A stretch of 56,214 bases of DNA from a virus. Its lineage: Duplodnaviria > Caudoviricetes. Every line of letters begins with the position of its first letter. The stretch's first letter is position 1. Made by a program: the position numbers and the translations under genes. Under the pieces are notes generated by a model. It made no database searches, was not told the origin of the DNA, and was given only the letters and a program-made list of their open reading frames with translations. Below, in pieces: positions 13,687-16,600 of the stretch. The stretch covers positions 1 to 56,214 of IMG/VR virus record IMGVR_UViG_3300048863_000005. One strand, written 5' to 3'.

Positions 13687-16600
13687 GACTCCATTGCCGG
13701 AATGCCGACCTCGTTCATCTGCTGCGTATACCGGGCCGTCTTGGCCGTATTGCGGGTTATTTGGGATTGAAGGTGTGTCTGGCTAGCGATCTCCTGCCGT
13801 AGCGCTCGTACTTCCGCAATCAGGTCCTCGTTGTTATTCGAGAACATGTTCTTGGTTTCGGAATGGCTGTAGATACGGGACGGGCCGGTCACCTCAAGTT
13901 CAGGTCCGTTCTCGCCTACGATCCGGGCGCCGCCGTCAAACGGTCCGCCTCTGGCAAAGCCTGGAATCTCCCCTGCTGAGGCCGCTGCAGCCTTGAATGC
14001 TGCGATCAGGTCAGTAACGCTTCCTGATGCCACAGCGTTCTGCCAGTAGCTCATGCCTGCTGCATCTGGAGCACGACCTAGAATCTGCTGGTACAGGTTC
14101 CGTATCAGTTCTCCGTTTTGGTTGGCTGAGCCCCTGATCGCTGAAGCCAGATCGTTACTGGAGACTGCCCCACTGGAGAGTTGCCCCTTCCAGTAGTTGA
14201 GACCCGAAGCATCAGCATCACGACCTAAAACAGCCTTGTAGGTGGATTTAACCAGCTGATCAGCATTCATCCCGCCCGTACCGTTAGGTGACAGGGCAAT
14301 GATGGAGGCATGCAGCCGGTTTACAGCGTCCACTACTGACAGGACGGTGTTATCCACTCCGTTAATTGCATCGATCTGAGCCTGAGCAAGGTCAAGTTGA
14401 CCCTGTAAACGTCCCATCTCTGCGTCATAAGCGGTCTGGGCTTGAGCAAGTTGCTTCTCAAGCGTGGCTAGTGTCTTCTCCTGGGTAGTCAGTTGGCCGT
14501 TGGTCTTGCCTTCCAATGCCTCCAGAAGGTTTGCACTGCGGCCCTGATCTCGAGCGAAGTCCTGCCAGTTGGTGTACCGATCAGACGTATTACCGGTTAC
14601 AGCCGAGATAGCGTCATCAAGATCAGCCCCGACCAGTGAGCCACCGGACAAGGCTTTGCGCAGCTGAGCAGTTGCGCTCTGGTACGCCATTCCTGACGTA
14701 TCCGATGCACCACGAAGCTGCTGAAGCGCACTGTGCAGGCTGCCGCTGAGCTGGGTTAACGTTGAGATGTTGCTATTGGCCGTGGACACCATGTCGTTAA
14801 GACTGGCGACCCTGGCGTTATAGGCATCGGTCAGCTTTTGCTGCTCGGCAGTAATGGCGCGCTGCAAGGCAGTGAACGCTGATGTCACGCTATCCACTAA
14901 CACCTGCTTGGCTGCTGCTGCGGCTTCGGCTGCTGCCTGAGCAGCGGCTTGGGCTGCTTCAGCGGCAGCATTGGCAGCATCTGTCATAGCCTGCTGGGCA
15001 ACAGCGGCCTGTTGCTCAAGGATGGAGTACGCCGTTGCTGCATTGCCTGACAACGCTGTAAGGGTCGCAAACATCTGCTGCCCGGTCGTTGTTGTCAGAT
15101 CCAGCGCATCAACGGTCTGCCTGAATGCATCTCTCGTCGCTGGCATTGCAATGCCCAGCGCTTCGAACTGCTTGCGTACGTCCTTCAGGTAGTTCTCGTT
15201 ACGCTCAGCCTCGGTAAAGAAGTTCTGATAATACGTATTGGCGTTAGCCGTCAGAGTGTCCAGTCCGCCTGCCAGATCTACAAGTGACTTGGCCGCTAAA
15301 GCGCCGTTGACTGATATATCCAGCGTTGAGCGATGAAGCGTGTTCAGGATCGAGTTCACGCCGGTCAGATCAACAGCCAGTTCCTGCAGCCCTGCAAAGT
15401 CCAGATTCTGGAACGGACTTCCCGCTACACCATTGACGACATCAACCATGTTCTCTTGGATCGATCCGAACCATTCCGCAAGAGCCTGGTTGATTTCTTC
15501 CTCGGTCTTTCCTGATGTCTGGACGTTAACCCGAATACCGGTGTTAAAGCTGGTAGCCAGAGCGTCAGCACCGTCTATACCCAGCTGCTTGAACAGCGTC
15601 AGAACATTGCTTTCAGTCGCGTCATAGGTGGTCTGAAGCGCGGCAGCTGTCTCAGCATCCAGATCATCATAGCGATAGCGACTCTTGGAACCGCCAAATA
15701 GCCCGCCTTTCTTCTTCTGGTACTCATATGACTGAGCATCCAGCTCGCCGCCGCTAACGCCGAGGTTGATGCCGCCTGATTTGGTAGTCCACTTACCGCC
15801 AAACAGCGAGCCACCAATCATGCCGCCTAATGCACCGCCTAGCAGAGTGCCAATTCCTGGCAGGAGCAGGCTTCCCAGCATAGCGCCGCCAATAGATCCA
15901 GCGGCACCCGTAGCAGCGCCTTTCAAGCCTGACTTGCCATAGCCATATAGCGCCCCGCCGATACCGGCAAGCCCAGCGCCGCCTGCTGACAGGCCTGTGC
16001 CTAGCAAGCCAGAGGCACCACTAGCCACACCGGCAGCAGCACCAGGGAAGCTGACCGCTCCGTTACCTAAGTAACCTAGGCCCGTTGCAACACCATTTGC
16101 ACCCGTAGTTAATGCACCTGCCGTAGCAGTACCTACTGCACCACCGCCACCAAACAATGCACCTATACCGCCTGCCAGAGAGCTATAGCCACCCGAGATA
16201 GCTCCAGAGAAGCCACCAGAGGCCCAGCCTGAGGCGATAGCCTGACCAAAGCCGCTGGTAGCTACTCCATAGAGTTTCTGTACAGAACTGGCAAGGGACA
16301 TGATGTCCATTCCGCCACCGCCGCCACCGAGCAAACTTGTAGCATTAGCGGCTCCAGATAGACCGCCCAAACCCATGGCTGCACTGATCTGCATAACGAT
16401 GGGACGGGTGATTGCCAAATGTGCCATTTCGGCTAGCAGCTGCTTGAAACCATCGATCAGGCTTGAGGCAAACCCTTTGAAGCCCTTATCTATGTTCTTC
16501 CAGCCATCCGCAAAGGCTTCGTCGATCCGGTCAATGGCGCCTTCAGTAAACTGTCCCCAAGCAGATGCTTGCCGCTGATTGGTTTCGTACTCAAGACCTA

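Follow-up and report, generated by a model that had tools for sequence, protein, structure and literature searches.

VIPR (Viral Interference Programmable Repeat) systems are described in three bioRxiv preprints of 2026 (10.64898/2026.04.26.720920, 10.64898/2026.04.26.720927 and 10.64898/2026.10.15.759431), whose available text is drawn on here. The viral DNA analysed against this background is IMG/VR record IMGVR_UViG_3300048863_000005, positions 1 to 56,214; this whole stretch of 56,214 nucleotides (nt) is referred to as the window. It is very probably the 56-kb genome of a Pseudomonas-type phage with a type II-like VIPR system, in which one guide RNA, vrRNA-A, is directed against competing phages that share a block of the tape-measure protein (TMP). 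According to the available text of the first preprint, a VIPR system comprises the minimal RAMP protein Vipr, an accessory protein, Vap, and vrRNAs of ~100 nt that consist of 9-16 GGY/NN repeats and a structured tail. The targets obey a '1 nt skip rule' on double-stranded DNA (dsDNA), with the skips at wobble positions, on either strand and with no protospacer-adjacent motif (PAM); binding to dsDNA is specific and represses transcription from either strand. Natural targets are competing phages, satellites and other VIPR systems. Coliphage SUSP1 and a prophage clade of P. fulva served as model systems, and most targets of the P. fulva clade are lysis-lysogeny regulators of resident prophages (10.64898/2026.04.26.720920). 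The RAMP fold of Vipr includes an RRM core, a G-loop and a thumb, the SUSP1-clade tail forms a pseudoknot, and vrRNAs co-purify with Vipr as ~100-nt RNAs (VIPR preprints). Cryo-electron microscopy places one protomer on each repeat, with the thumb displacing GGY and the skipped target base. The complexes have 11-12 subunits and an R-loop triplex, a single-stranded RNA (ssRNA) substrate mostly led to incomplete assemblies, and directional unwinding advances at the 5' edge (10.64898/2026.04.26.720927). Codon periodicity is argued to block escape via wobble mutations (10.64898/2026.10.15.759431).

The locus in the window resembles the type II VIPR of SUSP1 and the P. fulva clade in that a vipr gene is followed by a vap-like gene and by an array of ~110-nt units, each with 11-12 GGY/NN pentamers and a structured 3' tail. 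The targets recovered here likewise follow the 1 nt skip rule, with the skips at wobble positions, on both strands, and belong to other phages and to other VIPR loci. In contrast to the P. fulva clade, with its mostly regulatory targets, both vrRNAs of the window point at virion-module genes, namely the TMP block and a tail-terminator gene. A second difference concerns self-targeting. No self match of at least 80% of the NN dinucleotides is reported for the preprint's sets in its available text (10.64898/2026.04.26.720920), whereas the window phage holds a 9/11 NN site in its own genome. The cassette, preceded by Arc-like genes and an AntA antirepressor gene, has the tail chaperone genes on one side and the TMP gene on the other. 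Three elements are needed to follow the match between guide and site:

20445..20499, minus strand: guide region of vrRNA-A, 11 NN+GGY pentamers with the NN series AT GG TT GT AT GC AT TG GC AT TC.
16399..16430, plus strand: near-cognate vrRNA-A target site in the resident TMP gene, matching 9/11 NN and 19/22 nt.
13683..19202, minus strand: TMP gene encoding 1839 amino acids, of which codons 925-935 (EMAHLAITRPI) carry the site.

A sequence-only reading of the window had claimed that the dinucleotides of this guide, set apart by 1-nt gaps, match the plus strand at 16399-16430 in nine of 11 dinucleotides and 19 of 22 nt. Direct reading of these positions gives ATgGGaCGgGTgATtGCcAAaTGtGCcATtTC, identical in its letters to the earlier transcription, with two mismatched dinucleotides: the third, TT in the guide but CG at the site, and the seventh, AT in the guide but AA at the site. 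The 13 dinucleotides that had been listed were also sought in the whole window, on either strand, with each constant spacing between 2 and 39 tried in turn. Only two places reached at least nine matches: the source array itself (20499-20438, minus strand, period 5, 13/13) and 16399 on the plus strand, with nine matches at period 3. A pattern search allowing up to three mismatches found one site in the window and none in 100 window shuffles. The reverse complement of the site translates as ...LLAEMAHLAITRPIVM... within the 1839-residue open reading frame (ORF), which matches ten PHROG tape-measure families (best E = 2.7e-81). Since (19202-16430)/3 = 924, TMP residue 925 is the E of the motif, and the ORF frame places all of the skipped bases in 16399-16430 at codon position 3 of TMP codons 925-935, just as had been proposed. 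Transcription of the array would proceed from the minus strand, and at the site the vrRNA-A dinucleotides read the same as the plus strand. The RNA would thus pair with the minus strand, the coding strand of the TMP gene, again in agreement with the earlier proposal.

Better matches exist in related TMP genes. The pattern AT.GG.TT.GT.AT.GC.AT.TG.GC.AT.TC, run over the viral contig collection, has two exact matches, in contigs L005 and L006. Each is at the homologous position of a long TMP-like ORF, and the peptide encoded there is in both cases EMAHMAITKPI, as the sequence-only reading had expected of a perfectly matched TMP. Five of the ten skipped bases differ between these two perfect targets, which fits the suggestion that the guide is blind to synonymous escape. 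Relatives sought with a 151-residue TMP segment amounted to only seven loci. Two of them score 10/11 (L143, AEMAHLAITKPI; L144, AEMAHEAITKPI) and two score 9/11 (L145 and L149), while L146-L148 reach 5-6/11 at best, away from any clearly homologous motif.

The gapped decoding extends beyond this one pair. A total of 125 units with 108 distinct NN strings was called in the window and the loci fetched until then, L005 and L006 being left out of this count. Dropping the 14 of these 108 strings that had fewer than 11 called NN left 94 distinct guides, each taken as the 11 NN that precede the final NNGGG. They were compared with 1,005,629 bases, which comprised the window, 16 whole viral records (15 that carry VIPR and, as the 16th, the L005 target contig) and L006. 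Period 3 yielded 36 matches of at least 9/11 (26 at 9, 7 at 10 and 3 at 11), compared with none at periods 2, 4 and 6, and period 5 recovered only the arrays themselves. When the order of the guide NN was shuffled, period 3 produced on average 0.2 such matches per replicate (30 replicates, at most 2), and reversed, flipped or fully reversed guides gave none. The matches are contiguous blocks of 9-13 NN that usually, though not always, end before the last NNGGG. The 36 are not independent, as many are homologous sites in related genomes, and they correspond to ~11 guide-target families. Under a longest-ORF rule the skipped base is at codon position 3 in 30 of the 36 matches, 20 of these being sense (guide identical to the mRNA strand) and 10 antisense. 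The same rule places six matches at codon position 1, of which at least two are homologous to position-3 sites elsewhere; these calls probably stem from a wrong ORF choice in GC-rich DNA. Among the targets are TMP-like genes and a number of smaller genes of phages, as well as vipr in other loci. This last gene is matched at 9-10/11 NN by a related pair of guides, those of L028 and L029, in a motif (ATKAHKELTGKR) that corresponds by homology to Vipr residues ~29-41 in the window. The loci so targeted are L089, L092, L101, L104, L107, L110, L116, L119, L121 and L132. VIPR directed against VIPR, as these two guides suggest, is likewise described in the available text of 10.64898/2026.04.26.720920.

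The second guide of the window also has a perfect counterpart in another phage:

20329..20388, minus strand: guide region of vrRNA-B, 12 pentamers with the NN series TA GT AT AC TT TA GG AT GT AC GG GT.

An exact scan with its nine core NN returned a single match, at 4600-4625 of L150, a 41.7-kb viral contig. The three flanking NN match too, which brings the site (4594-4628) to 12/12. It spans the 3' end of a 133-residue tail-terminator gene (phrog_179), whose final codons read TPVTIPYNVIT followed by the stop codon; a major tail protein gene adjoins this gene, and the skipped bases are at codon position 3. Inside the window the best vrRNA-B match is only 5/11, the locally scanned DNA contains only one 8/12 match, and the full unit B pattern has no exact match in the genome contig collection.

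By homology to the published SUSP1 and P. fulva systems, each Vipr protomer would bind one pentamer, hide GGY and present NN. The resulting filament would pair the NN with dsDNA, skipping every third base, and by the same analogy binding would repress transcription. The cognate target of vrRNA-A would be the conserved TMP block that encodes EMAHMAITKPI; its skips fall on wobble positions and therefore synonymous changes should not matter. The resident EMAHLAITRPI breaks two of the 11 dinucleotides (3 nt), which may weaken or prevent self-silencing, and vrRNA-A would act as a weapon against competing phages with the same TMP block. The interpretation of the guide offered by the sequence-only reading is supported, the VIPR mechanism itself having already been described. 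Its prediction of perfect matches in related TMP genes held in L005 and L006. As to the substrate, the general data and the publications indicate dsDNA on either strand rather than mRNA.

Could the 9/11 match be a coincidence of chance or composition that follows from hidden choices of gap, phase, trimming and unit? The gap length had been picked and the last two units dropped by the reader, the Ala, Ile and Met codons spelled by the unit A dinucleotides abound in TMP genes, and 8/11 was reached by 127 of 20,000 guide shuffles. At 9/11, however, the count fell to 2 of 20,000 order-shuffled guides at period 3 (1 of 2,000 in a separate run) and to 3 of 4,000 with periods 2-6 all permitted. Shuffled guides thus do not match as often as the real one, and the earlier hand estimate of 3e-4 chance hits was about right in view of these frequencies. 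Nor was the trimming arbitrary, because the matched units coincide exactly with the 11 variable repeats that precede the last NNGGG; the two trimmed units, AT and CT, are parts of that last repeat and of the conserved handle. Both mismatched dinucleotides are matched in other TMP genes, and the 94 guides read in the same code gave their 36 matches against 0.2 expected. Coincidence is accordingly an extremely improbable explanation. In the RNAs bound by TRAP, triplets are separated by neutral spacers, and the NN might by analogy be neutral spacers without target information in an RNA whose only role is to bind or titrate the 191-residue Vipr. Conserved GGY with NN that are hypervariable between loci would look alike under this model. 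It is nevertheless scarcely credible, as the period-3 matches to coding DNA of other phages lie far above shuffles with their skips at wobble positions, and the reprogramming experiments described in the available text of 10.64898/2026.04.26.720920 show that the NN set specificity. The TRAP-like candidate was dropped after the period-3 excess (36 matches, 94 guides) had been seen. It is also very unlikely that vrRNA-A is an antisense RNA on the TMP mRNA that blocks translation and does not act on DNA. Its NN are complementary to this mRNA and 10 of the 30 in-frame matches are antisense, but the other 20 are sense and unable to pair with mRNA. The reported dsDNA binding and repression from either strand (10.64898/2026.04.26.720920) and the mostly incomplete assemblies on ssRNA (10.64898/2026.04.26.720927) also speak against it.

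The resident site raises a separate question. Among 29 guides in 16 records, unit A on its own TMP gene is the only self match of at least 9/11, the others reaching 5-8 at best, and non-self matches of at least 9/11 were found for six of the 29 guides. The site has 9/11 NN (19/22 nt), or 9/12 NN (19/24 nt) with the 12th repeat included, and is right at the 80% line used in the available text of 10.64898/2026.04.26.720920. The broken dinucleotides correspond to L for M and R for K in the resident TMP, and the first mismatch counted from the tail end is the fifth NN. With unwinding that advances at the 5' edge (10.64898/2026.04.26.720927, available text), read as starting at the tail end, the resident copy would be spared or weakly bound. 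Judged from the sequence, it is therefore plausible that the resident copy avoids or weakens self-targeting, as the earlier reading had put it. Alternatively, the 9/11 site may be functional, the phage's own VIPR binding its own TMP gene weakly and tuning or delaying tail expression; late genes might, for instance, be kept silent in a lysogen in this way. The singular standing of this self match would suit such a role, as would its location: it follows the array by ~4 kb in the downstream direction, on the strand of the tail genes. The alternative is quite unlikely, however, given the absence of self matches of at least 80% NN from the sets in the available text of 10.64898/2026.04.26.720920, the 9/12 NN that fall below this line once the 12th repeat is included, and the early mismatch in the direction of unwinding noted above. 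The perfect sites elsewhere, moreover, show a guide tuned to the M/K variant and not to the resident sequence. A wider proposal is that the site is not inert, being either a tuned weak self site that damps the tail operon or a fixed escape footprint, with selection for the L and R substitutions brought about by the arrival of the cassette in a genome that would otherwise have been silenced. This too is unlikely, but if true, either version would provide the first natural measure of the NN mismatch tolerance of VIPR and of the way in which autoimmunity is avoided by carriers of a system that has no PAM.

Several observations weigh against vrRNA-A being a guide against competing phages. The L005 and resident TMPs share only a block of ~100 residues (41% identity over 97 residues), and with the similarity confined to this block the guide would therefore address a conserved island in otherwise divergent TMP genes. 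From their sequences, the carriers of perfect targets are putative competitors only. The unit A pattern with up to three mismatches has no site in 18 other VIPR-bearing viral records, the exact pattern has no match in the genome contig collection, and tblastn of the 97-residue TMP block against the phage collection gave no matches, so that no target phage can be named. Few targets of vrRNA-A are therefore known. The array is covered by contigs of one soil metatranscriptome run (X1); these are possibly DNA-derived and attest to the presence of the sequence rather than to its transcription or to transcript ends and strand. Finally, mismatch tolerance of VIPR is not found in the available text of the three preprints, and therefore the resident 9/11 site might still be bound.

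The X1 contigs match window 15500-23500 at 100% in 13 pieces, which include 19443-20423 and 20447-20702. The phage of the window, or a near-identical one, was present in the soil sample of this run.

The remaining parts of the VIPR locus are the following:

20392..20444, minus strand: last repeat of vrRNA-A, ATGGG (20444-20440), and its 3' tail, CUGUAAACAGCG followed by a covarying hairpin at ~20432-20397; the 3' end is approximate.
20278..20328, minus strand: 3' tail of vrRNA-B, with handle and hairpin as in vrRNA-A; the 3' end is approximate.
20504..20962, minus strand: vap-like accessory gene encoding 152 amino acids, phrog_5926, with 23% identity (E = 3e-14) to the gene after vipr in SUSP1.
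20955..21530, minus strand: vipr gene encoding 191 amino acids, phrog_4652 (E = 1.2e-72), 40% identical to the SUSP1 protein.

The vap-like gene overlaps the end of vipr, and the two vrRNA units occupy the 310-nt gap beyond it. Each unit is laid out as 11-12 NN+GGY pentamers, a last NNGGG repeat, the motif CUGUAAACAGCG and a hairpin. Across the called units, which number 1-7 per locus at distances of ~110-125 nt, GGY and the handle are constant and NN is hypervariable. An alignment of 27 tails shows a near-invariant handle, GGGCUG-NNNA-CAGC, followed by a hairpin with compensatory changes in 13 of its 16 predicted pairs. Both window units fold far below their shuffles (z = -4.6 and -5.3). The pentamer arrays were not reported by Tandem Repeats Finder, Rfam gave no matches for the whole window at gathering thresholds, and a promoter and terminator scan of 20150-23300 found no sigma-70-like promoter or intrinsic terminator at the array above shuffle expectation. 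The first units of L011, L012 and L014 have near-identical guides on a constant GGY scaffold, with one NN differing (GA, TA or GG); this single difference hints at fast turnover of individual guide positions. Distant relatives (L068-L086 and L002, which is LESphi2; 52-57% identity) carry their arrays upstream of vipr and not downstream of vap, with as many as seven units in L081.

BLASTP aligned the 191-residue protein of the window with the 195-residue SUSP1 product over 188 residues at 40% identity (E = 3e-56). With the same query, tblastn retrieved 133 phage records, including phiSUSP1, Felixounavirus-like coliphages, the Pseudomonas phages Medea1 and LESphi2, and Gordonia phages, and the viral contig scan gave 80 loci with relatives of the protein. 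The SUSP1 vipr gene is flanked by GGY/NN tracts, one upstream and three downstream, exactly as described in the available text of 10.64898/2026.04.26.720920. Neither the 191-residue nor the 152-residue protein has a match in Pfam. An AlphaFold2 model of Vipr (25 sequences) has a mean pLDDT of 83.4 and a pTM of 0.80, and all listed Foldseek matches of this model in the PDB are CRISPR RAMPs (Csm3, Cas7-11, Cas6, Cmr6 and type VII Cas7). The scores are weak, with a best E of 1.8e-3 (probability 0.98), TM scores of 0.37-0.47 and no match at E <= 1e-3. The C-terminal GxxxYRPRFGRF is invariant in the alignment.

The RAMP fold and the listed Foldseek matches (best TM 0.42-0.47) liken Vipr to the backbones of class 1 CRISPR complexes, the Cas7/Csm3 filaments on CRISPR RNA. 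In CRISPR, five of every six bases pair, and guide and target share a period. The VIPR guide, by contrast, has a period of 5 with only two pairing bases and its target a period of 3, and the window locus is without a repeat-spacer array, adaptation genes or a nuclease. Common to both are one protomer per guide period and a thumb that flips bases periodically, according to the available text of the VIPR preprints. RNA-programmed DNA binding that blocks transcription, which is published for VIPR and would apply to the window locus by inference, also recalls dCas9 and CRISPR interference. VIPR differs from these in that its code is noncontiguous, no PAM is reported, either strand works, and the system is natural and phage-encoded.

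Upstream of the VIPR genes (21527-23200) lie an AntA/AntB antirepressor gene (288 amino acids, E = 6e-28) and two divergent Arc-like genes, an arrangement that may place the VIPR of the window under immI-like control. Pseudomonas phage Medea1 (L001) has the same cassette at another tail-gene position. Directly after the array, window 19597-20190 on the minus strand encodes a 197-residue protein with matches to Pfam VasI (type VI secretion VasI/EvfG, E = 5.6e-17) and phrog_1848; this VasI-like gene, with the VIPR array before it and the TMP gene after it, is an unexpected passenger.

The code, its codon alignment, its use in phage-phage conflict and its robustness to escape mutations were already known from the preprints of April-October 2026, as their available text shows. 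This locus or a TMP target may already be among the entries of the preprint data files, of which data S3 covers the targets of the P. fulva clade. What the window demonstrates is that raw sequence is enough to read the gapped 'two of three bases' code, the sequence-only reading having in effect rederived the VIPR code, and that this code also applies to a Pseudomonas-type phage that is not among the published model systems. The locus adds a natural guide-target pair in a virion gene, the TMP block, and a second pair in a tail-terminator gene. Three features may be new: that both vrRNAs address virion-module genes of other phages, that a near-cognate site is present in the phage's own essential TMP gene, and that the cassette is located behind an antirepressor gene inside the tail module. 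The rare near-cognate self site bears on how self-silencing is avoided, which is at issue as VIPR is reported to work without a PAM. Together, the 11/11, 10/11 and 9/11 sites in homologous TMP genes constitute a natural, ready-made test set for mismatch tolerance.

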